Positions 6,428-40,355 are shown, counted from the stretch's first letter. The stretch: 42,634 nucleotides of DNA from an uncultured Candidatus Saccharibacteria bacterium (GCA_964544985.1 CAZJEE010000006.1:1-42634); one strand, 5' to 3'. Notes: generated by a model not told the origin, from the sequence alone. Translations and numbers: made by a program.

Positions 6428-6470
6428 CTTTGACTTTCCATTTTTTCAAAAAAAAGCTATAATTATTAAC

Positions 6471-19513: not shown

Positions 19514-20260
19514 TTATGGTCTTGCTCCTGTAGGAAGATGAGCGAAAGGATTTCTAATTTTCAAAGAGAGAACATCAAAGTGAAGATGACACCCGGTTCT
19601 TCCGATGGTTCTTCCAGTGTTTCCAACAGCCCCAATTTGCTTCCCTTGTGAAACATAGTCTCCCGTAGAAACATGTATATTTTGCATGTGAGCATACAAT
19701 ATAACAACCGATCCGTGATCAATTTTTACAAAATTTCCTGCCGGCCAACTTCCCCATCCGGTTTGAGTAACTCTGCCCGCCGCCGCCGCAACTATTGGGG
19801 TTCCACAATGATTATAAATGTCTACCGCGTTATAAGAATGAACTCTTTGTGATATCCTCCCTCCTGGAACAGGATTGATAAAAGAAGACCACGCAATTCT
19901 TGTTGTTGGAGTTGTTCTTATTACTGGTGGTGGAGGAGGAGTTCCTCCGGGAATAATCAATCTATCACCAGCAATAATCTTTTTTTCTTCGATATTATTA
20001 AAACTAAGAATATCCTCCGTCTTGGCCTTATGAATTTTTGCAATTTCACTTAATGTATCTCCTTTTTCGACATAATACATAACTCCGGTTGTAGGAAGTA
20101 TCAAAAGCTCTTCACCCTCTTTAATGGTATTTCCTTTAACATCATTGGCCCATCTTATTGTATCTGAAGAAATCCCAAACTTATCAGCGATAATAGAGAT
20201 GTTCTCTCCATCCTCTACCTTATAAGATATAAAACTTTCTCTTGATTCACTTGTCTCCAT
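19514..20260 (-). CDS. LysM-LysM-M23 peptidoglycan metallopeptidase (the ATG-defined ORF; the true N-terminus probably lies upstream)
   Basis: Two LysM repeats (YKVEDGENISIIADKFGISSDTIRWAN and YYVEKGDTLSEIAKIHKAKTEDILSFNN), a Pro-rich linker, and an M23 core (GTPIVAAAAGRV...YAHMQN...GRTGCHLHFDV). The frame stays open 330 nt upstream (see findings). Confidence 0.85.
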   Translation of the reverse strand: METSESRESFISYKVEDGENISIIADKFGISSDTIRWANDVKGNTIKEGEELLILPTTGVMYYVEKGDTLSEIAKIHKAKTEDILSFNNIEEKKIIAGDRLIIPGGTPPPPPVIRTTPTTRIAWSSFINPVPGGRISQRVHSYNAVDIYNHCGTPIVAAAAGRVTQTGWGSWPAGNFVKIDHGSVVILYAHMQNIHVSTGDYVSQGKQIGAVGNTGRTIGRTGCHLHFDVLSLKIRNPFAHLPTGARP

Positions 20261-22153: not shown

Positions 22154-22981
22154 ATGTGTTTATCTAAAAAACTTATACTTATATTTTTTCTTGCCGTTTT
22201 TCTGATATTCCCAATAATTATTTACGGAACAGAAATTAACTGGCCATCAGCTCCACTAACAGGAGTCTCTCTTTCGGATGATTCTGAATTTCACGATCTC
22301 ATCGCTTACACTTATGGGTGGGGAATTGGATTAGGTGGGCTTCTAACGTTTGCAATGTTTGTCGTCGCTGGCATTGAGTGGATGACATCCGGTGGTAACC
22401 CAAGCAAACAAGCAAAGGCAAAAGCAAGAATAACGTCAGTTCTTCTTGGACTAAGTCTTCTTTTGTCTTCTTGGCTGATACTAAATACAATCAATCCTCA
22501 ACTAACTGTCCTCACGCCTCTTCCATCACTCTGGGACGACAACATGTATGAAGATGAAGAACTTCTATATGATGAAAAAGATTTGCCTTGTGAGTTTGTT
22601 GTTTTTTATGAAAAATCTGATTTTTCTGGAACAACGAGCGGTCCCATTTATCCTCAAGAACAAGGCTATACAAACATTAATCTTTTGATGGATTATCAGT
22701 CTGGTAAGGCGTTCCGCCAAATGACCGAAGAAGAAAAAGAAATAGTGGAAAAATTTGGCCCAGATTTTTTCCACAGGAGAGAAATTTATAACAACAACTA
22801 TATTGAACCCGGTCCGTGTATAATTACAATATATGAAGAAAAAAAGGAAGGACTTTTTAAAAAGAATGCTTGTGGAAAAATTATAGGAACAATCACTTTC
22901 CCTAATAAAAACTTTGCACATGCTTTATTTGGAGAAGTTGAGAAAAAAATAACTTGCTTCGTTGTAGAAGATGTTAATTGA
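22154..22981 (+). CDS. VirB2-like pilin hairpin fused to a roughly 150-aa C-terminal domain (275 aa)
   Basis: Signal peptide, then a two-helix hairpin VAGIEWMTSGGNPSKQAKAKARITSVLLGLSLLLSSWLILNTINPQL shared with four other ORFs here. The C-terminal domain contains FVVFYEKSDFSG. Confidence 0.65.
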   Translation: MCLSKKLILIFFLAVFLIFPIIIYGTEINWPSAPLTGVSLSDDSEFHDLIAYTYGWGIGLGGLLTFAMFVVAGIEWMTSGGNPSKQAKAKARITSVLLGLSLLLSSWLILNTINPQLTVLTPLPSLWDDNMYEDEELLYDEKDLPCEFVVFYEKSDFSGTTSGPIYPQEQGYTNINLLMDYQSGKAFRQMTEEEKEIVEKFGPDFFHRREIYNNNYIEPGPCIITIYEEKKEGLFKKNACGKIIGTITFPNKNFAHALFGEVEKKITCFVVEDVN

Positions 22982-24995: not shown

Positions 24996-25012
24996 TAAAA
25001 AATATAGAAATC

Positions 25013-25432
25013 ATGCTTAAAAAATACACGCAAAAAGAATATCATGATTTGTACGAATCTCTCCCTAAAAAAATGCAACATCTTTTTTGGGAAGATGATA
25101 TATCAAATCGTATTGAAAAGATATCTGAAAGATTTGAATTAACTAATAAAGAAATATGGCGAATTACTGAAATTATTGCTCATCTTTTTTTGGGAATTCT
25201 TCCTCCCGAGCACATCAGCTCAGTGATTCAAAAAGAAATTATCTTAAAAGAAGATTTTTCCAAGAAACTTGCGACCGAAGTTATCCGCTTTATAGTTTAT
25301 CCAACTCAACATCTTTTGAAAGAGGTTTATAGTGCCGAAGACTTTCAAAATATTGGAACAGAAAAAATCAATGAAGCAAAAAAGTTTAATAATAGAAAAG
25401 AAGAAGATCTTTATAGAGAACCCATAGATTAA
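25013..25432 (+). CDS. Small soluble protein ending in LYREPID (139 aa)
   Basis: Paralogous to ORF 26990. Both share the ...G-x-LP-x-E... core, a KK-rich tail and a C-terminal YREPI motif. No known family recognised. Confidence 0.6.
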   Translation: MLKKYTQKEYHDLYESLPKKMQHLFWEDDISNRIEKISERFELTNKEIWRITEIIAHLFLGILPPEHISSVIQKEIILKEDFSKKLATEVIRFIVYPTQHLLKEVYSAEDFQNIGTEKINEAKKFNNRKEEDLYREPID

Positions 25433-25478
25433 AAATGTCCTTGACAATAGGGCTATTAAAATAATAAACTGAAGGGAG

Positions 25479-26987
25479 ATGATAAAAAAAATAAAAGAAA
25501 AAAAGATAATTCTCGGAGTTCTCTTGGTTTTAATGATTGTCTCTCTCCCTCTTTTCTTCGCTGACGGAATCACAAATATTGGAGAGCTAACCGCCAGTGC
25601 AATTACTGGAGTGTTTCTCCTTACTACAGCTACTATTTCTTTCGTTTTTTCTACATTTGCAGATTGGTTTTTAAGAATAACTCTTAGTCCAGAATTTATT
25701 AATGTTCCTTATACTCCTGGAGGGGCAGGAGGAGGAAATGAATTTGTCTTCTATGGATGGAGTATTGTGAGAGATTTTGTTAACATGTTCTTTATTTTAA
25801 TTTTAATAATCATCGGACTTTCTACATCATTACAGTTTGAAACTTACAAGTGGCAAAAAACACTGCCTCGTCTTGTTCTTGTTGCGCTCCTTGTAAACTT
25901 TACTCCCGTCATCTTGGGAGTGTTTATCGATTTTACTAACTCGATGATGAACTACTTTGTCGCATCTATTGCCGATGAATCATTTTTTATCGCCAGAATA
26001 GGTAGGCTTTACGAAACCATGGCTTCGAATTTAGCGATTGCCAAATGGACAAGTTATACTGGAGAAATAATCACTCCAGTAGCAATGATGGTTATCTTTA
26101 CTTTGTTCAATCTTTTTACCGGAATTATCTATTCTCTTTACGGAGCTTTATTTGCCTTACGCTATGTCGCTATCTGGCTTCTTGTTATTATCTCTCCTTT
26201 TGGTCTTTTCTGTTATATCCTTCCTGCAACACAACCATTTTTTAAAACATGGCTCAGATGGTTTGTTGGGTGGTGTATTGTAGGAATTACGGGAGCATTC
26301 TTTCTCTATCTTGGAGAAATAATGTTTCAGGCAAGTGCTAGTAATATAACTGAAGAAGTAATGATGCCATCAGTTACTAAGTATCATGAAATGGATATCG
26401 GAGCGTTCATTGAAGTTTTCCCACTCCTCATACCCCTTTTCTTTATCTTCTTTGGTTTTTTAGTTTCTCTATCTATTGCGTCCCTAGGATCAAAAGGAAT
26501 TATTGAAACCTTTCAAAGGGCATCCGGCTCTGCAAGAAAAGCAGCTTCTCAACTGCCCGGATCTACTTTTAAAGAAAAAACAATGGCCGCTTCTGCTGCT
26601 GTTAAAAATGCTTTTAGCCCTGGACCCATGTCTTCTCCGCTCTCTTCGGGAAAATCTTCAGATAAACCTTCTTTTGGTTCTGCAAAAAGTGGAATGCTCC
26701 ATAAGCGTGATATATCAGCTGGTACCTCTAATTCAGGTATAGGAATGAGAATGCCAATAACTGAAACAGCATCTATAGCAAGCGGAGGAATGGAAAATGC
26801 AACAAAAAATATTGCCGCTGAATTTAGTGAAAAAGCAAAACAAAAGCCAGATTCATTAAAGATTGACTCTGCTGGAAAACAACAAAATCAAGCCGACAAA
26901 AAATGTAGTGGTTGTGGAGCAACTGTTAGTGGTGACGCCACATTTTGCCCTCTCTGTAGAAAAAATGTATTACCACAAAAAGAATAA
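25479..26987 (+). CDS. Second VirB6/TrbL-like polytopic membrane protein with a disordered tail and C-terminal zinc ribbon (502 aa)
   Basis: KTLPRLVLVALLVNFTPVILGVFIDFTNSMMNY is paralogous to the 22971 ORF. It has a Ser/Gly/Ala-rich tail and a terminal CSGCGATVSGDATFCPLCRKN. Confidence 0.55.
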   Translation: MIKKIKEKKIILGVLLVLMIVSLPLFFADGITNIGELTASAITGVFLLTTATISFVFSTFADWFLRITLSPEFINVPYTPGGAGGGNEFVFYGWSIVRDFVNMFFILILIIIGLSTSLQFETYKWQKTLPRLVLVALLVNFTPVILGVFIDFTNSMMNYFVASIADESFFIARIGRLYETMASNLAIAKWTSYTGEIITPVAMMVIFTLFNLFTGIIYSLYGALFALRYVAIWLLVIISPFGLFCYILPATQPFFKTWLRWFVGWCIVGITGAFFLYLGEIMFQASASNITEEVMMPSVTKYHEMDIGAFIEVFPLLIPLFFIFFGFLVSLSIASLGSKGIIETFQRASGSARKAASQLPGSTFKEKTMAASAAVKNAFSPGPMSSPLSSGKSSDKPSFGSAKSGMLHKRDISAGTSNSGIGMRMPITETASIASGGMENATKNIAAEFSEKAKQKPDSLKIDSAGKQQNQADKKCSGCGATVSGDATFCPLCRKNVLPQKE

Positions 26988-26989
26988 AC

Positions 26990-27418
26990 ATGAATAAAGA
27001 AATAGACATTATTAACTTACAAGAAGAATATCCGGAATTTTTTGAAGCATTCTCTTCAGAGATTATTGAATTTGTCCTAAGCAAAAAAACTTCACAAAAA
27101 ATTGCCAATATCTGTATTGAAAATAAAATTACCGAAAAAGATTTGGTAGAAGGCATTGCTTTTCGCATCACCTATGTAATTTTTGGAAAACTTCCTAAAG
27201 AAAATCTTATAATAACCCTTAGAGACGGGCTAGAAATAAGTGAAGAAAAAGCAAAAAAGATATCAGAAAGTGTTGATAAAATAATTTTTTCCGAACTAGA
27301 AAGAATAAAGAATAAAAAAGATAAAGATATTGAAAAAAAAACCATTAAAAATGAAGAATCAGCTAAAATTGTAAAAGATGATTTTAAGAAAGACGCCTAT
27401 CGAGAGCCGATAGGATAA
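26990..27418 (+). CDS. Small soluble protein ending in AYREPIG (142 aa)
   Basis: Paralog of ORF 25013, in the same position immediately after a VirB6-like gene. Confidence 0.6.
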   Translation: MNKEIDIINLQEEYPEFFEAFSSEIIEFVLSKKTSQKIANICIENKITEKDLVEGIAFRITYVIFGKLPKENLIITLRDGLEISEEKAKKISESVDKIIFSELERIKNKKDKDIEKKTIKNEESAKIVKDDFKKDAYREPIG

Positions 27419-27423
27419 CTATA

Positions 27424-27834
27424 ATGCAATATAAAGTACCAAGACACGTAGATTATAAAGCCAAGATTGTTGGCCCAGCAACTTTTTCACAACTGTTATA
27501 TATCGGCGCAGCTGGTCTTGTCGTTCTTTTTTTATATTTCATTATGGGAGGATCTCCTTTTTTCCTTCCTATTGCAATTATCTTGGGAGCAGGAGGAGTA
27601 TCGCTCGCTTTTCTTCAAGTTGCAGGACAACCCCTTCCGGAATATGTTAGAAAAATGATTCTTTTTAGCATCTCTTCAAGAGAATACATCTGGGAGAAAA
27701 AAATTATTCCTCTAGAAGAAGCTTTTCCAAAAAGAATGAAAATTGTTCCCGAAGAAACAAAAGAAGAAGGCGGTCCTAAGTCAAAGAAAAGAGGAAGTCT
27801 TGGAGATATCGCTAGCAAGATAGAAACATTTTAA
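27424..27834 (+). CDS. PrgI-family (VirB3-like) T4SS membrane protein
   Basis: An N-terminal MQYKVPRHVDYKAKIVGPATFSQLLYIGAAGLVVLFLYF followed by a second TM helix is the typical PrgI/VirB3-like signature of Gram-positive-type T4SS. It lies directly upstream of VirB4. Confidence 0.7.
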   Translation: MQYKVPRHVDYKAKIVGPATFSQLLYIGAAGLVVLFLYFIMGGSPFFLPIAIILGAGGVSLAFLQVAGQPLPEYVRKMILFSISSREYIWEKKIIPLEEAFPKRMKIVPEETKEEGGPKSKKRGSLGDIASKIETF

Positions 27835-27857: not shown

Positions 27858-28484
27858 ATGGCGCCAAAAAGTGCACAAGATTTTATCCCCATCAAGCAAG
27901 TAAGAGATGGTATTATAATCCTTAAAAACAAGGGACTTAGATCAATTCTAATGGTTTCTTCTATTAATATTGCTCTTAAATCAAGAGACGAACAAGAAGC
28001 CATTCTTTATCAATTCCAATCCTTTCTAAATTCTCTTGATTTCCCCTGCCAGATTGTAGTGCAATCAAGAAAAACAAACATCACCGGCTATATCGAAAAG
28101 ATAAAAAAATTAGAAGAAGAGCAGAAAAATGAACTTTTAAAACAGCAAACTGCTGGTTACAGAGAATTTTTGGAAGAATTTGTTACTAGAGAGTCTATTT
28201 ATACTAAAAACTTTTTTGTTGTTGTGCCTTATTCTGTTCCCGCAATAGGAGGTTCAAAAAAAACCACAAAAGGAACCATTAATTTAAATGAAGATAGTTT
28301 TCAGAGAGGAAAAGATCAACTTTACCAAAGAATGGAATTTGTTGCTCTTGGTCTTCGTCGTTGTGGTTTACACTGTGCTCCTCTAACGACAATTGAAGTT
28401 ATCGAGCTTTTCTGGTCACTCTTCCATCCGAAAAGTGCGGAGAGTGGATATTATCCAGAGTTTCCTGAAGAGTTAACATCATAA
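27858..28484 (+). CDS. VirB4-family N-terminal domain encoded as a separate ORF (208 aa)
   Basis: FIPIKQVRDGIIILKNKGLRSILMVSSINIALKSRDEQEAILYQFQSFLNSLDFPCQIVVQS matches the N-terminal region of Gram-positive VirB4-type ATPases. It stops 4 nt before the ATPase ORF, in a different frame. Confidence 0.6.
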   Translation: MAPKSAQDFIPIKQVRDGIIILKNKGLRSILMVSSINIALKSRDEQEAILYQFQSFLNSLDFPCQIVVQSRKTNITGYIEKIKKLEEEQKNELLKQQTAGYREFLEEFVTRESIYTKNFFVVVPYSVPAIGGSKKTTKGTINLNEDSFQRGKDQLYQRMEFVALGLRRCGLHCAPLTTIEVIELFWSLFHPKSAESGYYPEFPEELTS

Positions 28485-28488
28485 AAAT

Positions 28489-30285
28489 ATGGGATTATTA
28501 GAAGATTTTAAAACATTAATTGGAAAAGGAGAAAACAGTTCTTCTTCTGAAGAAAAAACAAACTCGCTGAGAATCGTGGATGTTATTGCTCCTTCTTCAA
28601 TTCAAGAACTCCAAGGACAACTCCGCGTAGAAGAAAAGTTTTCAAGATCGTTTTTTGTTTTTTCTTATCCTCACTACATTACCGCTGGATGGGTTTCTCC
28701 AGTTATCAATCTTAATGTCCAACTAGATATATCTTTCTTTATTCATCCAGCAAGTACGGAAGATATTTTAAAGAAACTTCGTAAAAGATTAACAGAAGTA
28801 CAGGCAGAAATAATGGACACTGAAGAAAAAGGGCTGGTAAGAAACCCCATGCTCGAGACTGCTTATCAAGACATGGAAGAGTTAAGAGATCGCCTACAAT
28901 CCGCGCAAGAGAGAATGTTTTACTTTGGTCTTTACATCACAATCTATGGAGATTCTGAAAAAGAGATAGAAGAAACAGAAAGCGTATTAAGGTCTATCTT
29001 TGAATCAAAGGTTATTTATGTCCGTCCTGCTCTCTTCCAACAAGCGGCTGCTTTTACCAGTACATCCCCTTATGGAATGGATCTTTTACAAACTCATACT
29101 CCGATGAACACCGAACCACTTTCTAGTATCTTTCCTTTTATCTCTTTTGATCTAACGTCTTCTGATGGAATCCTTTACGGAGTAAATAAGCACAACCGCT
29201 CTCTTGTTCTCTTTGATCGCTTCTCTTTAGAGAACGCGAACGCAGTAATCTTTGGTACTTCTGGTGCTGGAAAATCTTATCTTGTTAAGCTCGATGTGCT
29301 TCGTTCTTTAATGAGTGGAATAGAAGTTATTATTGTCGACCCTGAAAACGAATACCGGACTCTTGCCGAGTCTGTCGGAGGTGCTTTCTTTAATATATCT
29401 CTTGGTTCATCACACCAAATTAATCCTTTTGATATTCCTATTCCAGGAGAAGGAGAAAGCGCTGCAGAAGTTTTAAGAACAAACACAATCAATCTTGTTG
29501 GACTCTTGCGTATTATGTTGAAAGGTCTCGGTCCTGAAGAAGATGCTCTCATCGATCAAGCAATTACCGAAACTTATGCTGCAAGAGATATCACCCCCGA
29601 GAGTGATCCTAATACTTGGGCGGATAAAGTTCCTTTACTTTCTGATTTAGAACAAATTTTAGAGTCTATGGAGGGAACAAGGCCACTTGTATTGCGCCTG
29701 AGAAGATTTACTCAAGGAACATACTCTAACTTTTTTAATCATCACACTAATATTTCGGTTGAGAACAATCTTACGGTTTTTGGTATTAGAGATCTTGAAG
29801 ACGAAATGAGACCTATCGCAATGTTTATTATCATGCGCTATATCTGGAAAACGGTCTCCTCTTCTCTGAAAAAAAGATTATTTGTGATTGATGAGGCTTG
29901 GCTGATGATGCAGAATGAAGATGGAGCATCTTTCCTTTTCGGTCTTGTAAAGAGAGCCAGAAAATACTGGCTTGGAGTTACTACAATTACTCAAGATGTT
30001 TCTGACTTTATGCAATCTGGTTACGGAAAACCAATTGTTACTAACTCAGCGCTAAAAATACTTTTAAAACAGTCTTCAGCAGTAATCGATATGATCCAAA
30101 AAGTTTTTAATCTTACAGAAGAAGAAAAATTCATTCTTCTTGAAGGAGAAGTAGGAGAGGGAATTTTCTTTGCTGGACAAAAGCACGTAGCAATCAAGAT
30201 AACCGCGTCTTACACAGAAGATCAGATTATTACCTCTTCGCCGGAAGAAATAGAAAAAATGAAAAAAGCAAAAGCTCGGTTTTAA
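28489..30285 (+). CDS. virB4: VirB4-family T4SS ATPase (middle and C-terminal ATPase domains)
   Basis: Walker A GTSGAGKSY, Walker B RLFVIDEAWLMM, and downstream TTITQDVSDF. It starts with the YP...GW segment that normally follows the VirB4 N-domain. The 208 + 598 aa total about 800 aa, the usual VirB4 length. Confidence 0.85.
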   Translation: MGLLEDFKTLIGKGENSSSSEEKTNSLRIVDVIAPSSIQELQGQLRVEEKFSRSFFVFSYPHYITAGWVSPVINLNVQLDISFFIHPASTEDILKKLRKRLTEVQAEIMDTEEKGLVRNPMLETAYQDMEELRDRLQSAQERMFYFGLYITIYGDSEKEIEETESVLRSIFESKVIYVRPALFQQAAAFTSTSPYGMDLLQTHTPMNTEPLSSIFPFISFDLTSSDGILYGVNKHNRSLVLFDRFSLENANAVIFGTSGAGKSYLVKLDVLRSLMSGIEVIIVDPENEYRTLAESVGGAFFNISLGSSHQINPFDIPIPGEGESAAEVLRTNTINLVGLLRIMLKGLGPEEDALIDQAITETYAARDITPESDPNTWADKVPLLSDLEQILESMEGTRPLVLRLRRFTQGTYSNFFNHHTNISVENNLTVFGIRDLEDEMRPIAMFIIMRYIWKTVSSSLKKRLFVIDEAWLMMQNEDGASFLFGLVKRARKYWLGVTTITQDVSDFMQSGYGKPIVTNSALKILLKQSSAVIDMIQKVFNLTEEEKFILLEGEVGEGIFFAGQKHVAIKITASYTEDQIITSSPEEIEKMKKAKARF

Positions 30286-30335: not shown

Positions 30336-33300
30336 ATGAAAAAACTTCTTTTTTTGTCGCTATTAATTGCTATTTTTGTTGTTACGCCGTTTTTTGCTTT
30401 TTCACAGGAAATAATTTACCCAAGTATTCCTGGCGTTGCCGCTCCACAAGAATTTTTAAAAGAAGTTCAGTCACAGGAAGAGATTCTTCCTCTTTTTATG
30501 ACCTATTTTTTCCACCTGTTTTTAGTAGTTTCAATTGCTGTCGCCGTCAGCATCATGCTTTACGGTGGCTTTATTTACATTATTTCCTCTGGTGATCCAG
30601 AAAAAAGAAAACATGGAAAAAGTTGGATGCTTAGTGCGCTTCATGGATCTTTGATAGTTTTTGCTTCTTATTCTCTTTTATTTACTCTCGACTCTCAACT
30701 TGTTCTTTTTCAACAAAGAGAGATAGATAAGACGGGAACTGAAGGGAAGGTGGATTTAAAATGGGAAATAAAGAATGTTTATTATCAAATACCTTTTGGA
30801 CTTTTAATTGAAGACGCTATATTAAACGAAACCGCACAAAGCAAGCTTTACGATGTACTTAATGCAACATACAAAGCAGAAGATACTTCAAACGCAATAG
30901 AGCAAGGAAGTAAACAACTTTTAGAAATTATAGAGAAGTGCCCTGATAAAGAACCATGTTGTGGAGAAGGTGGAGACATTAACTCTCCTCCTATAAATAA
31001 AAAAGTAACTCCAAAGGAAGAAAAAAAAGCTCCTTTGTGGGTACTTGAAATAAATAAATTATTTGAAAAAACCGGCATCACAGATTGGGAAAAGCCAGAA
31101 AACGAAGTAATACTCACTTCTGAAAAAATTGATAAATCTCTTTTTAGTGAAGATTATGTTCAGATTAATCAACCAAATCTATTTAAGATAGCAGGCGTGG
31201 TGCCTCCTCTTGTCGATGGCAACGGAAAGCCAATCGGTTCTATTACATTTTCTTTTGGAGAAGAGTACACTGGGGGATTACACCGAGGAACGGATATCTC
31301 GGCGCCTCTTGGTAGCACAATTCAATCTACAACCGAGGGCTTTGTAATTTATGCAGGCGACATGGGAGGTACGGCAGGAGGTGCTGTCTCTATTCTTTAT
31401 CACGACGAAAAAACCGATACGCATTTTATTATTCATTATGTACATCTTGACATCAATAGTATCACACCTACGGCTGGAAAAAAAATATCCCAAGGGCAAA
31501 AGATAGGGGAAATAGGGACATCTGGAAGGGTTTTTATATCAGACAAGGATAAGGGACTTCTTCATTACGAGGTAATACTTCTTGATAAAGACACTGACAT
31601 TGGGCCAATAATAAGAGGAGAGTGTCTTTATACTTGCGGAAAAGCAATCGATCCCGTAAAAAATGGGTTTCTTAAAATAAATACGGATAAAACAAGTTAT
31701 CAAAATATCTTTTTTGCCTCTCTCTTTACCGCTTTTAATCCAACAACATCTCTTCTAACTTTGTCTTTTGTGATTCTTATCCTTCTTGCTTTCTTATTTT
31801 TATCTATCAAAGTAACTGCTCTACAGAAAAAAGTTCCTTTCACAAGAATTAGAAAAAGAAGTTTTACTTCTATTGTTTCTATTGTTCTTGTGCTTTCTCT
31901 CGCCCTTTCATCTCTTCCAATTAGTTATCTTCAAAAATCACCTTCCCTTGTTCTAAAAGAAAGTATTAAAATGCAAAATCAAACAGAGCTTTCATTTAGT
32001 CATCTAAATTTTAATATTGTTTTTGCAGAAAATAACGAAGGAAATTCATACTGGCAACACGTTTGGAAAGAAACAAAAGAAGGTGCTGTGTTGGGTGGAG
32101 CGACAGGAGCCACGGTTGGAGGTTTAGCTCTAGGTTATTTAGGGGCAGTTTTTGGAGCAGGAGGAGGAGGAGTACTGGGATTCGGAGTGGGTGCTATTCC
32201 TGGAGCAATATTAGGAGGAGCTCTTGGAACAGCAGTTGGCGGAGCAGGAGGTGCAATATTGGGAGGAGTAGCAGGAGGGCTTGTAAGAGGAGGATGGGCT
32301 CTTTTCACTTATGAAGAAGCAGAAGAAAAGTGTCCTGACAATAGTTCTCCTCAAATAGATCCTTGTGGAGAAGGCCAAACTGAAGTAGAACAAATAACAG
32401 ATCCTGATACCGGGAAAACCATTTATTGTTGTGAGGAGGAAGAAGAGGAAGAAGATACTTTTACAGAAAACTGTGAGTTTTATAAAGACGAATGTCCAGA
32501 CGGCTGTAATCTCGGAAATGACTCAACTGATTGTGGAGGAAATACTCCTTCACCATCTCACCTGTGTTGTTGTTGTGAAGAAGAAGAAGAAGAAAAATGT
32601 GGCAAAGAAGGAGAAGAATGTGATAATGAGAATCTATGTTGTGAAGAACTAAAATGTGAAGATGGAAAATGTATTGAAAAAGAGGAAGGAGAATGTTCCG
32701 ATGGCCTTGAAAAAGAAAGTGAAACTACTTGTAACCAAAAACAACTAGAAAGAGGATGTGAACCAGAGACTGTAAATGGGAAAGATATTTGTTGCTGTAA
32801 AGAAGAAATAGACTGTTCTCAGTTGTTTGGAGAAGATTATAGTCTTACCGATGAACCATCATGTTCTGAAGGACAAGCTAAACATGGCTGTGAAGAAATT
32901 CAAGATGAAGAAGGAAATGCCATAGGTTGTTGTTGTCCAGAAGAACCATTTTGTCTAGAAGACGGATGTGATGTCGCAGAAAAATGTCCTGAAGGAACTC
33001 TTAAAACCGATGAATTAGATGGAATGCTTTGTTGTTGTGAAGAGGAAGAAGAAGAGGAAGAAGAATGCCCTAAATGTCCTGATATTGCTTCTGCTGTACA
33101 AGCTAAAATAGGAGAAATAGAAGGACACATGACACAGCTTGCAAAAGACTTAGAAGCTCTTCTTTTAACAAAAGAACCTATTAAAGAAGACCTATATCAA
33201 TTATACAAAGTAGTGATGCTTAAAAGTTTAGGATATAAACAGGTTTTTGGATATAACTCTTTACTCCTTGAGAAAAGATACTATGAAAGAGGAGAGGTGG

Positions 33301-34451
33301 TTATTGATACCGATAGAGAAGTATCACAAATTGGAAAATACACCTGGGATTGGAGCCGCTGGATTAACAACATCCTTTATCGCATTGAATTAGGAGGAAG
33401 AGTAATCGAAGAAAATGATTCAGCAACTTTCTATCTAAGAATGCCTGAGTCAAAGAAGATTGTAGAAGATGCACTAAGATTGGCTAAAGAAGCAAAAGCT
33501 AATGATATTCAAAAGATAGGAAAAGATATTAGTGTAAAGAAGCCACAATCTCAGAACATATTCCAAAAAGTTTTCTCTTTGGTAACTGGAATATTCTCTG
33601 ATCTTGGATCAAAAGAAACTCTTGCTCAAACTGACATGAAAAAACTTCAAGATTATTTAGATGAACACAAAATAGATCCTGCAAAAATATCAGCTACTGA
33701 GTTTAACGAAATTGTGAAGAAGCTAGGAATAAGTACAGACCAAGGCCAAACACTAAGTGTCTTACAAAGAATGTCCCCTAGTGAATTTTTAGAATGTAAT
33801 ATGGAAATACCAATAGGAGAGGCTTTCGAACTAACATGGGCACATCTAATCGAGTTATTAGACACAATAGATAAATATGTTGAAGAAGGAAAGAAGCTTA
33901 TCGAACAACAAGCAAAGATGAATGAACTTGCTCGTCCTTGTGATTGTCCTTGTGAGGGAGACGAAAAGTGCCCTAATACTTGCGGGGCATGTAAACTAAC
34001 CTGTGATTTAAATGCAATAAAAGCTGCTCATCAAGAAGTTCTAAAAACAAGAGAAAAGATGAAAGAAATTGCCGCACACATTGTACTTCTTACTGATGGT
34101 CACTTTAATACCCCTACTGAAAATCTCTGTGACTCTCTAAATGAAGATGTAAGGGATGACGCAGAGAAGGTTTTGTGTGCCGGTGGAGGAAAAAAACTTA
34201 TCAGCAAACATGAATTAATTACTAGAAAGCTTAACTACTCTAGATTTAGTTTCGATGAATGTATCACTCGTCCAGAACACTTAGAGGATGTGTTGGGGGG
34301 AAAAAGAGCAGGAAAGCTTCCTTTCTTTGGGCCACTTGTTGAAGAAAAGGGAATCCCAAGATATACGAAGACAATAGTAAGCGGTTCTCGTGTCAACACA
34401 AGCGACTTTAATTGGTTCTGTTGTTCCGATTCAAAATTAGAAGATAAATAA
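30336..34451 (+). CDS. Giant modular surface protein: pilin hairpin, M23 peptidase, TM and Gly-zipper segments, poly-Cys/Glu region and a conserved Cys-knot C-module (1371 aa)
   Basis: Signal peptide plus hairpin LYGGFIYIISSGDPEKRKHGKSWMLSALHGSLIVFASYSLLFTLDSQL. M23 motifs LHRGTDISAPLGSTI, HYVHLD and GEIGTSG. Two internal TM helices and a Gly-rich stretch. 38 Cys in residues 666-914. The C-terminal roughly 450 aa is paralogous to ORF 35584. Confidence 0.8.
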   Translation: MKKLLFLSLLIAIFVVTPFFAFSQEIIYPSIPGVAAPQEFLKEVQSQEEILPLFMTYFFHLFLVVSIAVAVSIMLYGGFIYIISSGDPEKRKHGKSWMLSALHGSLIVFASYSLLFTLDSQLVLFQQREIDKTGTEGKVDLKWEIKNVYYQIPFGLLIEDAILNETAQSKLYDVLNATYKAEDTSNAIEQGSKQLLEIIEKCPDKEPCCGEGGDINSPPINKKVTPKEEKKAPLWVLEINKLFEKTGITDWEKPENEVILTSEKIDKSLFSEDYVQINQPNLFKIAGVVPPLVDGNGKPIGSITFSFGEEYTGGLHRGTDISAPLGSTIQSTTEGFVIYAGDMGGTAGGAVSILYHDEKTDTHFIIHYVHLDINSITPTAGKKISQGQKIGEIGTSGRVFISDKDKGLLHYEVILLDKDTDIGPIIRGECLYTCGKAIDPVKNGFLKINTDKTSYQNIFFASLFTAFNPTTSLLTLSFVILILLAFLFLSIKVTALQKKVPFTRIRKRSFTSIVSIVLVLSLALSSLPISYLQKSPSLVLKESIKMQNQTELSFSHLNFNIVFAENNEGNSYWQHVWKETKEGAVLGGATGATVGGLALGYLGAVFGAGGGGVLGFGVGAIPGAILGGALGTAVGGAGGAILGGVAGGLVRGGWALFTYEEAEEKCPDNSSPQIDPCGEGQTEVEQITDPDTGKTIYCCEEEEEEEDTFTENCEFYKDECPDGCNLGNDSTDCGGNTPSPSHLCCCCEEEEEEKCGKEGEECDNENLCCEELKCEDGKCIEKEEGECSDGLEKESETTCNQKQLERGCEPETVNGKDICCCKEEIDCSQLFGEDYSLTDEPSCSEGQAKHGCEEIQDEEGNAIGCCCPEEPFCLEDGCDVAEKCPEGTLKTDELDGMLCCCEEEEEEEEECPKCPDIASAVQAKIGEIEGHMTQLAKDLEALLLTKEPIKEDLYQLYKVVMLKSLGYKQVFGYNSLLLEKRYYERGEVVIDTDREVSQIGKYTWDWSRWINNILYRIELGGRVIEENDSATFYLRMPESKKIVEDALRLAKEAKANDIQKIGKDISVKKPQSQNIFQKVFSLVTGIFSDLGSKETLAQTDMKKLQDYLDEHKIDPAKISATEFNEIVKKLGISTDQGQTLSVLQRMSPSEFLECNMEIPIGEAFELTWAHLIELLDTIDKYVEEGKKLIEQQAKMNELARPCDCPCEGDEKCPNTCGACKLTCDLNAIKAAHQEVLKTREKMKEIAAHIVLLTDGHFNTPTENLCDSLNEDVRDDAEKVLCAGGGKKLISKHELITRKLNYSRFSFDECITRPEHLEDVLGGKRAGKLPFFGPLVEEKGIPRYTKTIVSGSRVNTSDFNWFCCSDSKLEDK

Positions 34452-34458
34452 ACCATAT

Positions 34459-35541
34459 ATGAAAAAAAAGATTCTACTTCTATGCCTCTTTTTCTTCCTT
34501 TTGCTCATTGTGTTTTTTGCCACCGATTCTTTTGTTTTCTCCCAAGGATTAGAAGTTGAATATCCTTCAATTGATAATTATCGTCCAGTAGCTGGTGGGT
34601 CAGAAGAGCTTCCTAATTACTTAAAATACATCATTCGCTTTCTTACACTTAGTGCCGGAATTGTTGTTTTTGGATCCCTTGTTTACGGAGGTTTTTTATG
34701 GATGACATCAGAAGGAGAACCATTAAAAGTTCAAAAAAGTAAAAAACAGATACTTTCTTCGTTTGTCGGTCTTCTGATTATCATCTCTTCTTTTGTTCTT
34801 CTTAATTCTATAAATCCTACCCTTGTTGAGTTGAAAAAAATAGAGATTATTGAAGTAGAAAATGTAAATTCACCAGGAGTTTACCTTTCTTTAAGTGGAT
34901 CTTTCCATGAAAGCAACTTCGAAGAAATGCAAAAAAATGTAAGGAAAATTACTTCTCCTGAAGGAGGGCTGGGAAACTTAAAAGGAAGAATAAAGGCTAT
35001 CCGAATCGTTAACCCTCTAGATGAAAATAATCAGCTAACCTATCGTTATATCGTTGTTTTACATGGCAAAGAAAACTTCAGAGGGCCGTGCGAGTTTATC
35101 TTAACCAACAATTCAGAACACAACTTTACAAACATTAGTGGTGATATTTTAGCAAATACCTTTTCTATTACTGTCTTTAGGGCTGAACGCTACGGACAGT
35201 CTCCGTACGGAAGAGTTGTTGTTTATAACAAGCCTGACTTTGAAGATAAATTTGGATCAGAAAGATTACTTACAACAACAACCGATAACTTCACTCCTTT
35301 AGCCGCCGGGACTCAGCCATGGTCAATAGAAATCGAAGGAGATTACGCAATTATTTTAGCTTCTGGATCAAGCTGGGATCAGATAAATGACGAATGTGTT
35401 GTCTTTGCCTCATCAAAGCCCATCCCTAATCTCACTAGTCATTACATGAACACCTGTAATCCGTTTCTCCTTTCCCACTTCTTCTCGGTCTATGACTCAT
35501 GTGCAACTCACTATGCACTTTTTCCTCTCTTTAGAAGATAA
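34459..35541 (+). CDS. VirB2-like pilin hairpin fused to a roughly 240-aa C-terminal domain (360 aa)
   Basis: Signal peptide, then VYGGFLWMTSEGEPLKVQKSKKQILSSFVGLLIIISSFVLLNSINPTL, then a beta-rich-looking domain (VVLHGKENFRGPCEF, VVVYNKPDFEDKFG). Confidence 0.65.
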   Translation: MKKKILLLCLFFFLLLIVFFATDSFVFSQGLEVEYPSIDNYRPVAGGSEELPNYLKYIIRFLTLSAGIVVFGSLVYGGFLWMTSEGEPLKVQKSKKQILSSFVGLLIIISSFVLLNSINPTLVELKKIEIIEVENVNSPGVYLSLSGSFHESNFEEMQKNVRKITSPEGGLGNLKGRIKAIRIVNPLDENNQLTYRYIVVLHGKENFRGPCEFILTNNSEHNFTNISGDILANTFSITVFRAERYGQSPYGRVVVYNKPDFEDKFGSERLLTTTTDNFTPLAAGTQPWSIEIEGDYAIILASGSSWDQINDECVVFASSKPIPNLTSHYMNTCNPFLLSHFFSVYDSCATHYALFPLFRR

Positions 35542-35583
35542 GTTTTAAGTTGTTTTTCTCTTTTTTTGCGATATAATTTTTAA

Positions 35584-38500
35584 ATGAAATTATTTTCATT
35601 CATAGTAATTTTTCTTTTACTTTTTTCCTTTATTGTCTCTGCTCAAACAGAGGTTATTTATCCGTCTCTTCCAGGAGTTCTCTCTCCTCAAGAAATTGCC
35701 AATCAAGTCCAGTCACAACAAGAGATCTTCCCTCTTTTTATGGCTTACCTTTTTCGCCTCCTTGTTGTTATTTCTGTCTCAGTTTGTTTGTCTATTATCC
35801 TTTATGGAGGACTTCTTTATCTTTTTTCCTCGGGAAATTCCGAAAAAAAACAAAATGCAAAAAGCTGGATATTAAGCGCCCTACATGGCGCTCTTATTAT
35901 TTTTATCTCTTACTCCCTTCTTCTGGCTCTTGATTCTCGACTGATTCTCTTTAATCTCAATGAATTAAAAAAGGGAAATGAGATAGAAAAAATTCACCTA
36001 GAGTGGATTATAAAACAAATTTATTTTCAGATACCGTTTGGTCTTTTAGTTGAGGAAGCAGCAACCAATGAAAATGCTCGCGATAGATTTTATGATATAT
36101 TAGATGCGCTCTACGATGCAGAAGACACCGCAGATGCAATAATCTGGGGAGGAAAAGATCTTTTAGGGATAATAGATGTCTGCCCAATAGGAATGGAATG
36201 TTGTGATGATTTTCCTTTTTGTGAGTGGCCACCGATACCCTTTGCAATACTTCAGCGGGAAAAAGAACCACGTCCTAATTTAAATTGTTTTTGGAACAGC
36301 ATGGCAAAAAGATCTGGAGTTCCTACAATATTAACACGTCCTCCTGTAAAACCACTTCCTTTGGATGCAGTAGATAACTTTCTTGATATAGTAGATACAA
36401 AGCATCATATCAAAATCACAATAAATGAACTTGAAGAAGTAGTAGAAAGTTTTTTTGATCCTCGTATAGAAAAAGGAGATCCTCTTTGGCCTCTTAGAGA
36501 ATCTTTACTGGAAATTATCCGCGAAGTAGATGAAATACTTGCTCATCAAAAAACTGGATTTGATTTAGTAATAGAAGTAAGAAAAATAACAAGAAAAATA
36601 GATTCTCTTATTAATGAATATCCTCTTTTAAAGGAGTCTCCTTTTTGGAATGTTTTAGAAAAAATGTCAGGAGATTGGCTATTAGGAAAAGAGTCATTTG
36701 CAAAAGGAGAATCTGGTTATCGAGATATTCCCTATATTGAACAAGACGATCTTCGATGGAGACATATTAGATATAATTACGATACCCTTTACTCTTCCGG
36801 TTGTCTTTTGGCTTCTACCACAATGGCTCTCAAAAGTTTTGGAATTGATGTGGACATTATCGAAGCATTACGTTTTTCAAAAGCAAATGGACACACAGGT
36901 ATTATGGGTGGAACTCTTTTTCCTTTTACTTGTCATTTTGCACAAACACACGGTTTAAATTGCAAAAGAATAACCAACCCTAGTCCTTCTCATTTCCCAG
37001 AAATGATTAGCTGGCTTGAAAATAAGGGGCCGATTGTAATTGGAGGAATCGGCCATCCTTGGAGTATGGGAGGAGGACACGCCATTCTTTTAACTGGAGT
37101 AGATAGGAATAAAAGAGTAGTATATCTTAACGATCCATCAAGAGCTTTCTTGCATTCAGTAACTTTCGGAGAAGTTTTAAGTAACATGCCTTTTGAACTC
37201 GGCTATATTTCAAAGAAAGAAATTGCAGAGGCTCCTCTTTTTATTGAAGATTCTTTACTATGTGAATCAACGCCTAACAAGATCCTTGGGAGTCATGGTG
37301 GAGGAGATGGCGATTGCCCTGAAATATCTTGTGCTATCCAAATAAAAATCAACGAAATACAGCTTTACATGTTTAAACACCAAAGAGACCTGTGGGTTAT
37401 ATTTTTTGCAAAGGATCTTAAAAAAGAAGGTCTTTATCAACTTTATAAAGCACTGATGCTAAAAAGTTTAGGCATAGAACATCTTCTAAGCTATACAGAT
37501 CTTCTGTTAGAAAAAAGTTATTATAATGAAAAAGAAGAAGTGGTAATTACAACAGACAGTGATTTTACAAAAATACATAGATACAATACTTCTGGAGAAA
37601 ACCCCTATATTTGGAACTGGCAAAAATGGATTAATAATATTGTTTATAAAAAAGATATTGACTGTCACGTTACAATCGCCAACGATCCTGCAACTTTTTA
37701 TTTAAGAAAACCTAGTGCAGACGAGATTATAAAAAACGCCTTAATAGAGCTTGCCTATCGCAGAAAACAAGCAGATATTCAATACTTGGAAATAGAAAAA
37801 TTAATTAAAAGAGACACCACCCTTATCGGTAAAGTAGAGGGTGTTGTTGAAGAAATCTTTAGTGACCCTTATCTAAATATCTTTTTTTCTTCTCCTTTCA
37901 TCAAAAAAGAAATAGGATCTCTTGGTATCTCTCCAGAAATAATTTGGTACTATCAACGTTTTTTAAAACAGTCTTCTCCCTTAGTAACTGCTTCGCTTTC
38001 TCCAAACTACAATGCTATTTTAGCTCTCAATAATTATTTTTTAGAAAACAACATCGACCCACAACTAATTTCTGAAGAAGAACTCCTCAAAATATTAAAG
38101 TTACTAGATATAAGTCCAGAAGAAATATCAATTTCAGAGATCAGAAACACTGACATTGCACATCCCAGCGAATACCTTTCTTGTGGAATGGAAATTCCCG
38201 TTGGAGAAACATTTGAGCTAATATGGGATCATTTTATAGATCTTTTGTTTGTTATGGACGGTTATATTGTGGAAGGGTTATATCTCTTAGAACTTCAAGA
38301 ATATATGAATTATTTAGCTTCGTTTTGCTCCTGTCCGTGCGTTGATCCATGCTGTGAGTGTGATCCTCCATATTCTGGAGCATGCACTCTATTTTGTGAC
38401 AAAGCTACAATTGCCGGTCTTTACTACGGAGAAATTATTCCAACAAGAATGAGAATGCTAAGTATTGCGGAATATATTAAACACTTAACTCAGGGATTTT

Positions 38501-38844
38501 TTAACAATCCTTCAGAAAATATTTGTATTTTAATTAATGAGGATATAAGAGACAACGAAGAAAAAATACTTTGCAATTCTGGTGGAAAAAAGTTTATCAC
38601 AAAACATGAACTAATTACTAGAAAATTAAATTATTCAAGACATGCTCTTGATGAATGCATAACTCGTCCCGAACAAGTGGGTGATATTTTAGACGCAACA
38701 AACGTAGGAAAAGTCACCGTGTTTGGCCCATTTGCTGAAAAAGAAAATCTTCAAAGATATACTAAAACAAAGATAGATAACGTAATGATAAATACTCATG
38801 AGTTTAATTGGTTCTGTTGCTCTGATACACGACTGGAAAAATAG
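35584..38844 (+). CDS. Giant modular surface protein: pilin hairpin, C39-like papain-fold Cys peptidase and a conserved Cys-knot C-module (1086 aa)
   Basis: The first roughly 210 aa and last roughly 500 aa are paralogous to ORF 30336. The middle carries IPYIEQDD...SSGCLLASTTMAL (Cys407), GGGHAILLTGVD (His499) and YLNDPS (Asp517), a C39-like peptidase pattern. Confidence 0.8.
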   Translation: MKLFSFIVIFLLLFSFIVSAQTEVIYPSLPGVLSPQEIANQVQSQQEIFPLFMAYLFRLLVVISVSVCLSIILYGGLLYLFSSGNSEKKQNAKSWILSALHGALIIFISYSLLLALDSRLILFNLNELKKGNEIEKIHLEWIIKQIYFQIPFGLLVEEAATNENARDRFYDILDALYDAEDTADAIIWGGKDLLGIIDVCPIGMECCDDFPFCEWPPIPFAILQREKEPRPNLNCFWNSMAKRSGVPTILTRPPVKPLPLDAVDNFLDIVDTKHHIKITINELEEVVESFFDPRIEKGDPLWPLRESLLEIIREVDEILAHQKTGFDLVIEVRKITRKIDSLINEYPLLKESPFWNVLEKMSGDWLLGKESFAKGESGYRDIPYIEQDDLRWRHIRYNYDTLYSSGCLLASTTMALKSFGIDVDIIEALRFSKANGHTGIMGGTLFPFTCHFAQTHGLNCKRITNPSPSHFPEMISWLENKGPIVIGGIGHPWSMGGGHAILLTGVDRNKRVVYLNDPSRAFLHSVTFGEVLSNMPFELGYISKKEIAEAPLFIEDSLLCESTPNKILGSHGGGDGDCPEISCAIQIKINEIQLYMFKHQRDLWVIFFAKDLKKEGLYQLYKALMLKSLGIEHLLSYTDLLLEKSYYNEKEEVVITTDSDFTKIHRYNTSGENPYIWNWQKWINNIVYKKDIDCHVTIANDPATFYLRKPSADEIIKNALIELAYRRKQADIQYLEIEKLIKRDTTLIGKVEGVVEEIFSDPYLNIFFSSPFIKKEIGSLGISPEIIWYYQRFLKQSSPLVTASLSPNYNAILALNNYFLENNIDPQLISEEELLKILKLLDISPEEISISEIRNTDIAHPSEYLSCGMEIPVGETFELIWDHFIDLLFVMDGYIVEGLYLLELQEYMNYLASFCSCPCVDPCCECDPPYSGACTLFCDKATIAGLYYGEIIPTRMRMLSIAEYIKHLTQGFFNNPSENICILINEDIRDNEEKILCNSGGKKFITKHELITRKLNYSRHALDECITRPEQVGDILDATNVGKVTVFGPFAEKENLQRYTKTKIDNVMINTHEFNWFCCSDTRLEK

Positions 38845-38923: not shown

Positions 38924-40355
38924 ACGGAAATGATAATGTCATAGTAGAGGGAAATAGAAATGTCATAGTAATAGATAAATAATAAATTAAAATGTTAATG
39001 TCAATTATTAGTAAATAATTAACACTAGCATATGAAATATCTAACTATGACTAAAAAAGAAGTTAATCGACATGCCATTATCAAAAAACTAATCAATAAA
39101 GAAATCAATGGAACTCATGCTTCAGAACTTCTTAATCTATCAATTCGTCAGATTAAAAGATTAAAGATAAAAGTAAATGGAAATGGTCCAGAAGCATTGA
39201 CTCATGGTAATAGAGGAAAGCCTGGTAATCGTAGGATACCAAACAAGGGAAGAGAAAAGATAATAGAATTACTCCATAAACATTATCCAGACTTTAAACC
39301 AGGCTTTGCTTCAGAGAAACTAGATGAGATACACAATATCCAAAGAGATCCCAAGACCATCAGACAGATTATGATTAACGAAGAACTATGGAAACCTAAG
39401 ATTAAGAAAAAGAAAGAATATCATTCCTGGCGTCAAAGAAAGGCTTGTTATGGAGAAATGCAACAGTTTGATGGCTCATATGAACACTGGTTTTTGAAGA
39501 TAGAGGCCCCTATTGTTGCCTCTTAGCTTCGATAGACGATGCTACTAGCATTCCTACTAAAGCTAAGTTTGTTTCTGATGAAGGAGTATTTCCAGTCTTT
39601 GACTTCTGGAAAGAGTATTTAGAAGAATATGGTAAACCATATTCAATATATGTGGATAAATTCAGTACCTACAAGATGTCTCAAAAAGTAGTTTTAGCAA
39701 ATCACGATACCCTAACCCAATTCCAAAGAGCTATGAAAGAATTAAACATAGAACCCATAAGTGCTCATAGTGCTCAAGCTGAAGGAAGAATAGAGAGACT
39801 ATTCAATACCCTTCAAGATAGATTGATCAAAGAGATGCGTTTAGCTAACATTTCAACCATAGAACAGGGCAATAGATTCTTAAAAGAAGTCTTCTTACCT
39901 CAATACCGAGCCAAGTATAGTGTTGAACCAAGAAGTAAAGCTAATCTCCATAGAGCTTTGAATCAAAAAGAGAGAATTGAATTAGATTCAATCTTTTCCA
40001 GACAATATGTTCGTGTTATCAAGAATGACTTTACTATTAGTTTTAACAAACAATGGTATCAACTCTTAAAGAATCAACCAGTCACTATTTGCAAAAAAGA
40101 CACCATCATTGTTGAAGAACATTTAGATAATACTATTCAATTTAGGATCAGAGGAAAACATCTCAATCATCAGATTATCCCTAAAAGACCCAAGAAGATA
40201 AAAGATATTCCTTGGATTATTCCAGCTAAAAGATCTGTATATATTCCTCCGGTTGACCATCCATGGAGAAGAAGCTTTAATCCTTCCTTAAAAGTTTAAA
40301 AGGTTCAGGTATGACATTTCTAAATCCTTAGAAGTATGACATTTCTATTTCCCGT
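38924..40355 (+). mobile_element. IS element (ISNCY-like DDE transposase) with doubled terminal repeats
   Basis: A perfect 19-bp inverted repeat, gggaaatagaaatgtcata at 38949-38967 versus tatgacatttctatttccc at 40335-40353. A second, imperfect copy lies at each end (38924-38943 and 40309-40328). These repeats enclose the transposase reading frames. No target-site duplication is evident. Confidence 0.65.
39032..40299 (+). pseudogene. ISNCY-like transposase interrupted by a frameshift in a T5 run
   Basis: Frame 1 (39032-39526) encodes the HTH and the region up to QQFDGSYEHWF. Frame 2 opens at 39484 and continues (F)EDRGPYCCLLASIDDATS...IYVDKFSTYK...SAQAEGRIERLF to 40299, so the DDE residues are split across frames. 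The switch is at tggtttttgaag (39488-39499). Confidence 0.7.

Follow-up and report, generated by a model that had tools for sequence, protein, structure and literature searches.

What purpose could be served by two giant proteins of one secretion locus that share both their ends and carry different hydrolases in between? The question is raised by a 42,634-nucleotide stretch of DNA from an uncultured Candidatus Saccharibacteria bacterium (GCA_964544985.1 CAZJEE010000006.1:1-42634; “the window”), in which two open reading frames (ORFs) on the plus strand—ORF1 (30336-34451; 1371 residues) and ORF2 (35584-38844; 1086 residues)—lie downstream of a gene for a VirB4 ATPase. The best explanation, to which we assign a probability of roughly 0.6, is that ORF1 and ORF2, paralogs of long standing, represent a core extracytoplasmic component of the Patescibacteria-type (monoderm, MPF-FATA-like; MPF, mating-pair formation) chromosomal type IV secretion system (T4SS), that is, modular VirB2-like subunits which would place envelope hydrolases at the secretion machine as functional analogues of PrgK, TraG and CwlT, with fast-evolving exposed parts.

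Both proteins start with a signal peptide, a VirB2-like hairpin and a stalk, and both end with a C-terminal module (C-module) that can be divided into Cmod_a and Cmod_b. In ORF1, these shared parts are separated by an M23 metallopeptidase domain, a second membrane hairpin, and Gly-rich and Cys/Glu-rich segments, while in ORF2 a helical linker and a C39-like peptidase take that place. By pairwise BLASTP, the N-terminal modules (N-modules; ORF1 5-248 against ORF2 3-246) are 46% identical (E 8e-67) and the C-modules (ORF1 914-1369 against ORF2 578-1085) 42% identical (E 8e-113), with no significant similarity in the middles between these two collinear blocks. A first-pass annotation, made from the sequence alone, had proposed such paralogs with common ends, and the peptide pairs it quoted all recur in the alignments; the similarity of the N-terminal parts stands, but their shared extent, which had been put at about 210 residues, reaches to about residue 245. 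A 1371-residue counterpart of ORF1, 99.85% identical, is present in an independent assembly. The paralogy is old and shared, because other contigs (L013, L017, L030) hold two to three giants, each with its own gene of the pilin360 type described below.

Following the signal peptide, both ORFs display two hydrophobic helices around a short basic loop (SSGDPEKRKHGKS in ORF1, SSGNSEKKQNAKS in ORF2), with hydropathy marking hydrophobic segments at residues 1-28, 49-86 and 98-125 of ORF1 and 1-27, 47-84 and 94-123 of ORF2. The VirB2-like pilin hairpin of ORF1 (30480-30710; residues ~49-125) leads into a conserved stalk (30711-31070; residues 126-245) with YYQIPFGLLIEDA, a long helix and CPDKEPCC; in ORF2, hairpin (residues 47-123) and stalk (residues 124-245) together span 35722-36318. 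An AlphaFold2 model of ORF2 places the hairpin helices at residues 48-81 and 86-116 and gives the stalk region a predicted local distance difference test (pLDDT) score of 85-93. Within the family, the T4SS_pilin model PF18895 is matched at E<1e-3 by 17 of 47 members, the best being P0036 (42.9 bits); this N-module and that of P0026 (40.4 bits) lie above the curated cut-off of 26.6 bits.

The middle of ORF2 holds a papain-fold cassette. Residues 381-518 (36724-37137) match Peptidase_C39_2 (PF13529; 32.5 bits, cut-off 24; E 1.5e-7), and ORF2 likewise matches Peptidase_C70 (PF12385; 27.7 bits, cut-off 19), in agreement with the C39-like peptidase expected at about 36720-37200. The candidate residues named in advance, Cys407, His499 and Asp517, are correctly positioned and conserved across 18 family members: Q387, C407 and H499 are each kept in at least 90% of the C39-like segments and position 517 is Asp or Asn, so that Gln (oxyanion)/Cys/His/Asp-or-Asn is, as read from the alignment, the standard papain-fold catalytic set. 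The term “C39-like” refers to the fold only; bacteriocin-processing C39 peptidases proper, which are N-terminal domains of ABC exporters and cleave double-glycine leaders, were discarded as a model, ORF2 being devoid of ABC transporter domains and located in a T4SS operon. A single-sequence search of the C39-like region against the PDB returned only Tae4 at a non-significant E value of 0.35, which fits a papain-like fold.

The ORF1 middle carries an M23 metallopeptidase domain (31278-31580; residues 315-415), predicted earlier at about 31186-31600 and matched by Peptidase_M23 (PF01551; 49.7 bits, cut-off 28.7; E 4.4e-13), with DipM, LytM and ShyA among its PDB relatives. In an alignment of 18 M23 segments—16 from 14 family proteins, ORF1, and a LysM-M23 protein of the window—the relatives show the canonical HxxxD and HLH(Y/W/F)E motifs, and the 17 segments other than that of ORF1 read HLH followed by Y, W or F, except for the first M23 of P0031 (HIHFE). 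ORF1 reads LLHYE as opposed to HLHYE, with Leu408 at the first His of HxH, and retains the three zinc ligands (H316, D320, H410); Leu408 is present, too, in the 99.85% identical independent assembly. In LytM, the first His of HxH is a catalytic, non-ligand residue. The zinc ligands of M23 enzymes are the His and Asp of HxxxD together with one His of HxH, and in a published structure the ligand His touches the Glu two residues on (PMC8269130), for which the ORF1 equivalent is H410-Y-E412.

Downstream of the M23 domain, hydropathy predicts a second membrane hairpin (31731-31934; residues 466-533), whose helices (residues 466-498 and 508-533) flank a strongly basic loop, KKVPFTRIRKRS, and via which the chain probably re-crosses the membrane once. 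The first-pass annotation had put everything after hairpin helix 2 outside the cell; an extracytoplasmic topology is plausible, but the literal “everything” does not extend to ORF1, because of these extra helices around a basic loop. The membrane, Gly and Cys segments it had listed are present by hydropathy and residue counts. A Gly-rich segment (residues ~578-655; 21 Gly within residues 601-650) and a Cys/Glu-rich low-complexity segment (residues 656-912; 38 Cys within residues 651-950) together occupy 32067-33071. The Cys/Glu-rich part (32301-33071) has runs like CCCCEEEEEE, with 35 Cys in residues 651-900, and has a recognisable, partial counterpart only in the closest relative, P0001; it may bind metal or act as a disulfide-rich spacer. 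A word-indexed homologue search with ORF1 residues 246-700 gave no match, Gly-rich words having probably swamped the candidates.

Behind these divergent middles, ORF1 continues with Cmod_a (33075-33755; residues 914-1140), composed of helices and a small beta unit (DLYQLYK...NDSATFYL), and Cmod_b (33756-34448; residues 1141-1371), composed of CNMEIPIGE, long helices, a CxCPC knob, HELITRKLNYSR and NWFCC. The C-module of ORF2 (37315-38841) comprises Cmod_a at residues 578-854, with an insert of ~40 residues, and Cmod_b at residues 855-1086. No Pfam or NCBIfam model matches the C-module. Its AlphaFold2 model (pLDDT 73, predicted TM-score 0.68, 24-sequence alignment) reaches a pLDDT of ~90 in Cmod_b, for which it predicts a strand with CGMEIPxGE, two helices of 34-40 residues beside a low-confidence Cys-rich knob, and a small alpha/beta unit ending in NWFCC; the helices of hairpin and stalk are borne out by the model of full ORF2 (pLDDT 67). 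Compared with PDB folds, the full ORF2 model found nothing at E<0.3: its matches to R388 VirB5/VirB6 stalk chains (E ~3.7, probability 0.06-0.08) and to the papain-like GtgE (E ~4) do not rise above noise and were not used as evidence. The Cmod_b profile retrieved coiled-coil artefacts only from PDB sequences.

Cmod_b, the last ~230 residues, is the most conserved part of the family proteins; six of its Cys residues never vary and a seventh is kept in at least 90% of cases, in giants and stand-alone proteins alike, the latter being short relatives of 260-310 residues with a signal peptide and Cmod_b alone. In view of these signal peptides, a role of Cmod_b as a cytoplasmic VirD4-recognition signal of the XVIPCD type was rejected. 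Because the C-module is exported, strongly conserved and paired with pilin360, we infer a structural or organising role for it in an exposed assembly. As a separate observation, the ORF1 stalk (30711-31070) and the start of its Cmod_b (33756-34100) resemble each other in the succession of a strand, (Q/E)IPxG, a long helix and a Cys cluster, possibly an ancient internal repeat, for which hhalign gives P 9e-4 and a probability of only 23% over 48 columns.

How variable is the middle across the family? A word-indexed search with the C-module had returned 8 proteins only; when 1.84 billion representatives were searched in full by HMMER with the profile of that module, 49 emerged, most of which follow the order N-module, variable middle, C-module. 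Further cassette variants, for which the first-pass annotation had proposed to look, are thereby recovered: the middle may be M23, C39-like, C39-like plus M23 (P0012), two M23 domains (P0018), C39-like plus Fib_succ_major (P0032), or a long stretch without Pfam match (P0013, P0025). M23 is often lodged inside the C-module, between Cmod_a and Cmod_b. A 1378-residue relative shares 44% identity with ORF1 in the N-module and 56% in the C-module, around an unrelated middle of ~700 residues. In P0043, the pilin N-module gives way to a signal peptide, and Cmod_b is joined to a GH5-like glycosidase; the equivalent gene of loci L031 and L032 (674-675 residues) matches Glyco_hydro_cc (E 7e-11) and Cellulase (E 2.6e-8), and its GH5-like domain stands at the N-terminus of the Cmod_b gene, not in the preceding gene, and hence still between Cmod_a and Cmod_b. 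Several members (L016, L019, L022, L056) have no recognisable hydrolase. The slot contents—M23, C39-like peptidase or amidase, GH5-like glycosidase, or none—argue for a wall polymer as the putative common substrate over one specific protein substrate, because the enzymes among them are all envelope-polymer hydrolases.

The position of these proteins in the genome ties them to a secretion locus. In the window, all on the plus strand, a pilin gene (PF18895; 22154-22981) is followed by genes for a polytopic membrane protein of 674 residues (22971-24995), a protein of 139 residues (25013-25432), a second polytopic membrane protein of 502 residues (25479-26987) that is homologous to the first, and a 142-residue paralog of the ~140-residue protein (26990-27418). 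The core then comprises PrgI/VirB3-like (27424-27834), TrsD-like (27858-28484) and VirB4 (28489-30285; VirB4-like model NF045971, E 8.5e-106, 354.9 bits, cut-off 325), and only 50 bp separate the virB4 stop from the ORF1 start. Between ORF1 and ORF2 lies pilin360 (34459-35541), which encodes 360 residues with a signal peptide, a VirB2-like hairpin and a 235-residue C-domain (NF045849, E 3e-7). A KsgA gene is found further upstream, and no relaxase was seen in the window. The pair of polytopic and ~140-residue protein genes is duplicated in tandem (22971-27418), with relatives having one pair upstream of PrgI; a VirB6-like role is plausible here. In its gene content, the locus corresponds to the published Patescibacteria chromosomal T4SS, described as having TrsD and PrgI next to VirB4, divergent VirB2-like pilin arrays, usually no relaxase, and KsgA/RnpA neighbours (Quinonero-Coronel et al. 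2025, PMC12102498).

For a survey of synteny, ORFs of 56 loci—11 from GTDB genomes and 45 metagenomic—were annotated with profiles of the window modules. The GTDB loci stem mostly from metagenome-assembled genomes of Candidatus Nealsonbacteria or Saccharibacteria, together with two short contigs from bins labelled Chloroflexi and Iainarchaeum; sample codes for sediment (SL_..._SED) mark many of the metagenome contigs. The conserved order is polytopic membrane protein, ~140-residue protein, PrgI, TrsD, VirB4, ~150-residue protein, gene A, gene B and pilin360, after which relatives have jag/khpB, yidC and rnpA on the opposite strand. Gene A encodes the VirB2-like hairpin, the stalk and a short Cmod_a, followed by an M23 domain, a C39-like domain or no hydrolase at all, and gene B a signal peptide with Cmod_b. 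Where a Cmod_b-bearing gene has a downstream neighbour within the locus (64 cases), the next gene is of the pilin360 type in 48, and most genomes have one copy of the unit, at a set position in the core operon beside virB4. ORF2 1-517 has a collinear counterpart in the split gene A of L035 (E 2e-28). Within split gene A, the matches of the jackhmmer Cmod_a and Cmod_b profiles coincide in part with the stalk, and profile drift may account for them; the short Cmod_a-like stretch there is backed only by direct BLASTP (E 6e-4 and 0.017). Since ORF1 occupies the position of gene A plus gene B and is followed by pilin360, ORF1 and ORF2 are fusions of gene A and gene B, with the unit duplicated in the window.

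The exchange of cassettes can be followed between two closely related loci, L033 and L035. Their core proteins are nearly the same—VirB4 and YidC 96% identical, TrsD 94%, Jag 88%—whereas identity falls to 62% for gene B, 54% for the whole gene A protein (BLASTP), 46% for pilin360 and 37% for the small ORF after virB4. Likeness in gene A is confined to roughly the first 350 residues, after which L033 continues with M23 and L035 with a C39-like domain. At the nucleotide level, flanks of mostly ~90-97% identity enclose a mosaic island of ~4 kb (L033 5650-9800) that runs from the virB4 end to the pilin360 end and comprises the small ORF, gene A, gene B and pilin360; identity within it is 67-89% for the gene A hairpin and stalk, 35-42% for the hydrolase and 35-49% for the pilin360 C-domain, of which little has escaped replacement. 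Together with the family search, this swap bears out the proposal that the middle cassettes are exchangeable on a common scaffold. For the L035 pilin360 C-domain, the best match (66%) comes from L038, although L035 is a C39 locus and L038 an M23 locus; hydrolase and C-domain thus assort independently. That exposed modules turn over so fast while the core stays 95-96% identical speaks for contact with a variable partner surface.

How, then, might such proteins work? On the reading that we prefer, the hairpin would insert the protein into the membrane pool that supplies pilin-like subunits to the machine, whereby the hydrolase and the C-module would be sited at the machine or at a pilus-like structure outside the cell. 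The enzymes would cut peptide bonds of peptidoglycan so that the apparatus can cross the wall, be it the cell's own or that of a host. The exposed parts—hydrolase, Cmod_b knob and pilin360 C-domain—are shuffled and diverge fast, as expected if they meet a variable partner surface. Consistent with a role of this kind, peptidase and lysozyme homologues directly downstream of virB4 are described as essential in S. epibionticum (PMC12102498). The T4SS itself is essential for epibiotic growth in Southlakia, the only species in which this has been tested (Wang et al. 2023, PMC10633639). A more ambitious version, which we put forward only tentatively, is a VirB2-type pilus-like structure with enzyme subunits, the first “modular” pilins of the VirB2 family, equipped with interchangeable wall-cutting domains, which would be capped or organised by the Cys-rich Cmod_b and the partner pilin; the hypervariable island would then be a host-range determinant, exchanged like phage tail fibres.

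Several observations weigh against modular VirB2-like subunits at the machine. The PF18895 scores of the two window proteins (ORF1 21.1 bits, E 3e-4; ORF2 23.2 bits, E 7.5e-5) stay under the cut-off of 26.6 bits. The ORF1 M23 domain may be weak or inactive, its predicted catalytic competence being uncertain because the first His of HxH is missing, and the extra hairpin of ORF1 together with an extension of 1000 residues is hard to reconcile with filament packing. Several Nealsonbacteria contigs (L004, L006, L007) hold pairs of a giant and pilin360 without virB4 within 8-10 kb, so that physical linkage to the machine is not universal. Finally, the AlphaFold2 models (pLDDT 73 and 67) are only moderate, given shallow alignments of 23-24 sequences, and Foldseek with the C-module model gave helical-bundle noise only, with best E values of 0.69 in the PDB and 0.20 in BFVD.

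Among known systems, the closest functional parallels are the wall hydrolases of Gram-positive conjugation—PrgK (pCF10), TraG (pIP501), TcpG and CwlT (ICEBs1)—which are VirB1 analogues. The window proteins resemble them in being encoded in a T4SS operon beside virB4, in having an N-terminal membrane anchor and a probable extracytoplasmic location, in their peptidoglycan hydrolase domains of the LytM/M23 and papain-fold types (CHAP and NlpC/P60 in the conjugative enzymes), and in multi-domain combinations, here exemplified by C39-like plus M23 in P0012. They differ in their anchor, a VirB2-like two-helix hairpin with a stalk in contrast to a single helix, and in their papain-fold domain, which matches C39_2/C70 and not CHAP; no SLT, lysozyme or CHAP domain was found in ORF1 or ORF2 with Pfam. 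The large, conserved Cys-rich C-module and the dedicated pilin360 partner are without counterpart there.

Modular type IV pilins such as PilB and PilC of Streptococcus sanguinis combine an anchoring and polymerising pilin module with a C-terminal globular module that is displayed on the filament. The concept of a pilin module with a grafted C-terminal functional domain is thus common to both, but the former belong to the type IVa family with its prepilin peptidase, carry adhesive and not hydrolytic modules, and show no homology to the proteins discussed here. The VirB2-like pilin arrays described for Patescibacteria (PMC10633639, PMC12102498) agree with the window locus in TrsD, PrgI, VirB4, origin-proximal neighbours, divergent PF18895 pilins and hydrolases downstream of virB4, whereas in the passages of these papers that deal with them, pilins and hydrolases figure as small proteins distinct from each other.

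The rival that survives best, and which we nonetheless hold to be unlikely, regards the giants as polymorphic surface effectors or toxins, in which the scaffold delivers or displays interchangeable lytic domains that chiefly damage or lyse a host or competitor cell, independently of machine assembly. Diverse cassettes on a constant scaffold, two to three paralogs with different hydrolases in one genome (L017), the outright domain swap within a ~4 kb hypervariable island in a 95% identical backbone (L033/L035), and the giant-pilin360 pairs away from virB4 would all suit it. Domain replacement is, of the hallmarks of polymorphic toxins, the one that is found here; the variable domain is internal and not a C-terminal tip, the C-terminus being the most conserved part, and no cognate immunity gene accompanies it. 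The neighbouring gene is pilin-type whether the hydrolase is M23, C39-like, GH5-like or lacking, and a function of pilin360 as hydrolase-specific immunity protein is ruled out by this constant presence and by the independent assortment of its C-domain. The unit is, moreover, mostly single copy and fixed in the core operon after virB4, and tblastn with the C-module gave no match in plasmid or phage collections; as a family assignment, the polymorphic-toxin analogy drawn by the first-pass annotation is therefore not supported.

A related comparison concerns X-Tfes, bacteria-killing T4SS effectors of Xanthomonas and cytoplasmic substrates that are recognised by VirD4 via a C-terminal XVIPCD and are accompanied by immunity proteins. 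Varied hydrolytic domains on a conserved module, T4SS context and swaps between close relatives are shared with X-Tfes and polymorphic toxins, but X-Tfes are set apart by what is found here: Sec signals, membrane hairpins, an exported conserved module, fixed operon membership and the lack of an immunity gene. Recognition in the cytoplasm by a coupling protein, as for X-Tfes, is hard to square with the Sec signal peptides and membrane hairpins. The epibiotic, host-dependent lifestyle described for the phylum (PMC12102498) would in turn suit the reading as surface effectors or toxins.

Rather more doubtful is the idea that the giants are subunits for adhesion or host recognition, with hydrolase folds that would be used mainly for binding or regulation, like the catalytically dead LytM factors EnvC and NlpD, and with the C-module as a receptor-binding tip. 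The Leu in place of the first HxH His in ORF1, the several members without recognisable hydrolase (L016, L019, L022, L056) and the rapid divergence of exposed domains are in its favour, as is the outcome of published T4SS surveys, in which no classical adhesins were found in Patescibacteria (PMC12102498). Most M23 domains of the family, however, keep the full HxxxD/HxH set, the Gln/Cys/His/Asp(Asn) set of the C39-like domains is kept as well, pointing to selection for catalysis, and the C-module, which would be the tip, varies least of all parts and not most. That the C39-like or M23 domains are maturation proteases for pilins or exported proteins, comparable to C39 leader cleavage or TraF-type pilin maturation, is very improbable despite the Pfam matches to the C39-like family and C70/AvrRpt2, proteases of protein substrates, and despite five pilin-like genes in the window that could need processing, since there is neither ABC transporter fusion nor double-glycine leader, the signal peptides of the pilin-like proteins are of the usual Sec type, and a slot that holds M23, a GH5-like glycosidase or nothing is unfit for one conserved processing step.

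Some further features of the window deserve mention. A fifth VirB2-like pilin gene (6360-6860, plus strand; 166 residues; PF18895 E 2.4e-8, TrbC E 1.5e-3) lies ~15 kb from the main secretion cluster among housekeeping genes. Just upstream of the secretion genes, a canonical peptidoglycan hydrolase with two LysM domains and M23 (19514-20260, minus strand; M23 E 5e-24) adjoins an ORF with a DksA/TraR zinc finger (19112-19465). Two very large plus-strand ORFs of 1493 (10013-14494) and 993 residues (14542-17523), which precede the secretion locus by a few kb, consist of 23-26% Glu and 17-18% Lys, have no Pfam match, and explain a strong purine skew in this region (AT up to 0.49, GC up to 0.39). 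Right after ORF2, the plus-strand ORFs 39032-39526 (HTH_28/HTH_32) and 39652-40299 (no Pfam match) look like a split transposase, and an insertion may have displaced the usual pilin360 or jag-yidC-rnpA neighbour.

The locus type, the pilin arrays and the presence of hydrolases near virB4 have already been published. The pilin-hydrolase fusion, Cmod_a and Cmod_b, the unit of gene A, gene B and pilin360, and the hypervariable island were not found in the literature searched; a literature search for papers citing PF18895 gave only one of the Patescibacteria T4SS studies cited above and one structure-clustering preprint. For annotation, the C-module adds a domain family outside Pfam and NCBIfam coverage.

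The predicted pilus of the Patescibacteria T4SS has been called the most intriguing open point (PMC12857230). For the substrate and mode of action of this system, the locus family offers concrete handles, namely hydrolases joined by covalent fusion to VirB2-like hairpins, an exposed unit encoded by three genes, a new conserved domain with no structural relative in the databases searched, and an exchange amid a 95-96% identical core. It turns the question of what the T4SS touches into testable ones, i.e., which walls are cut by the M23, C39-like and GH5-like domains and whether host range is set by the island, and the family may show how these ultrasmall epibionts breach cell walls.

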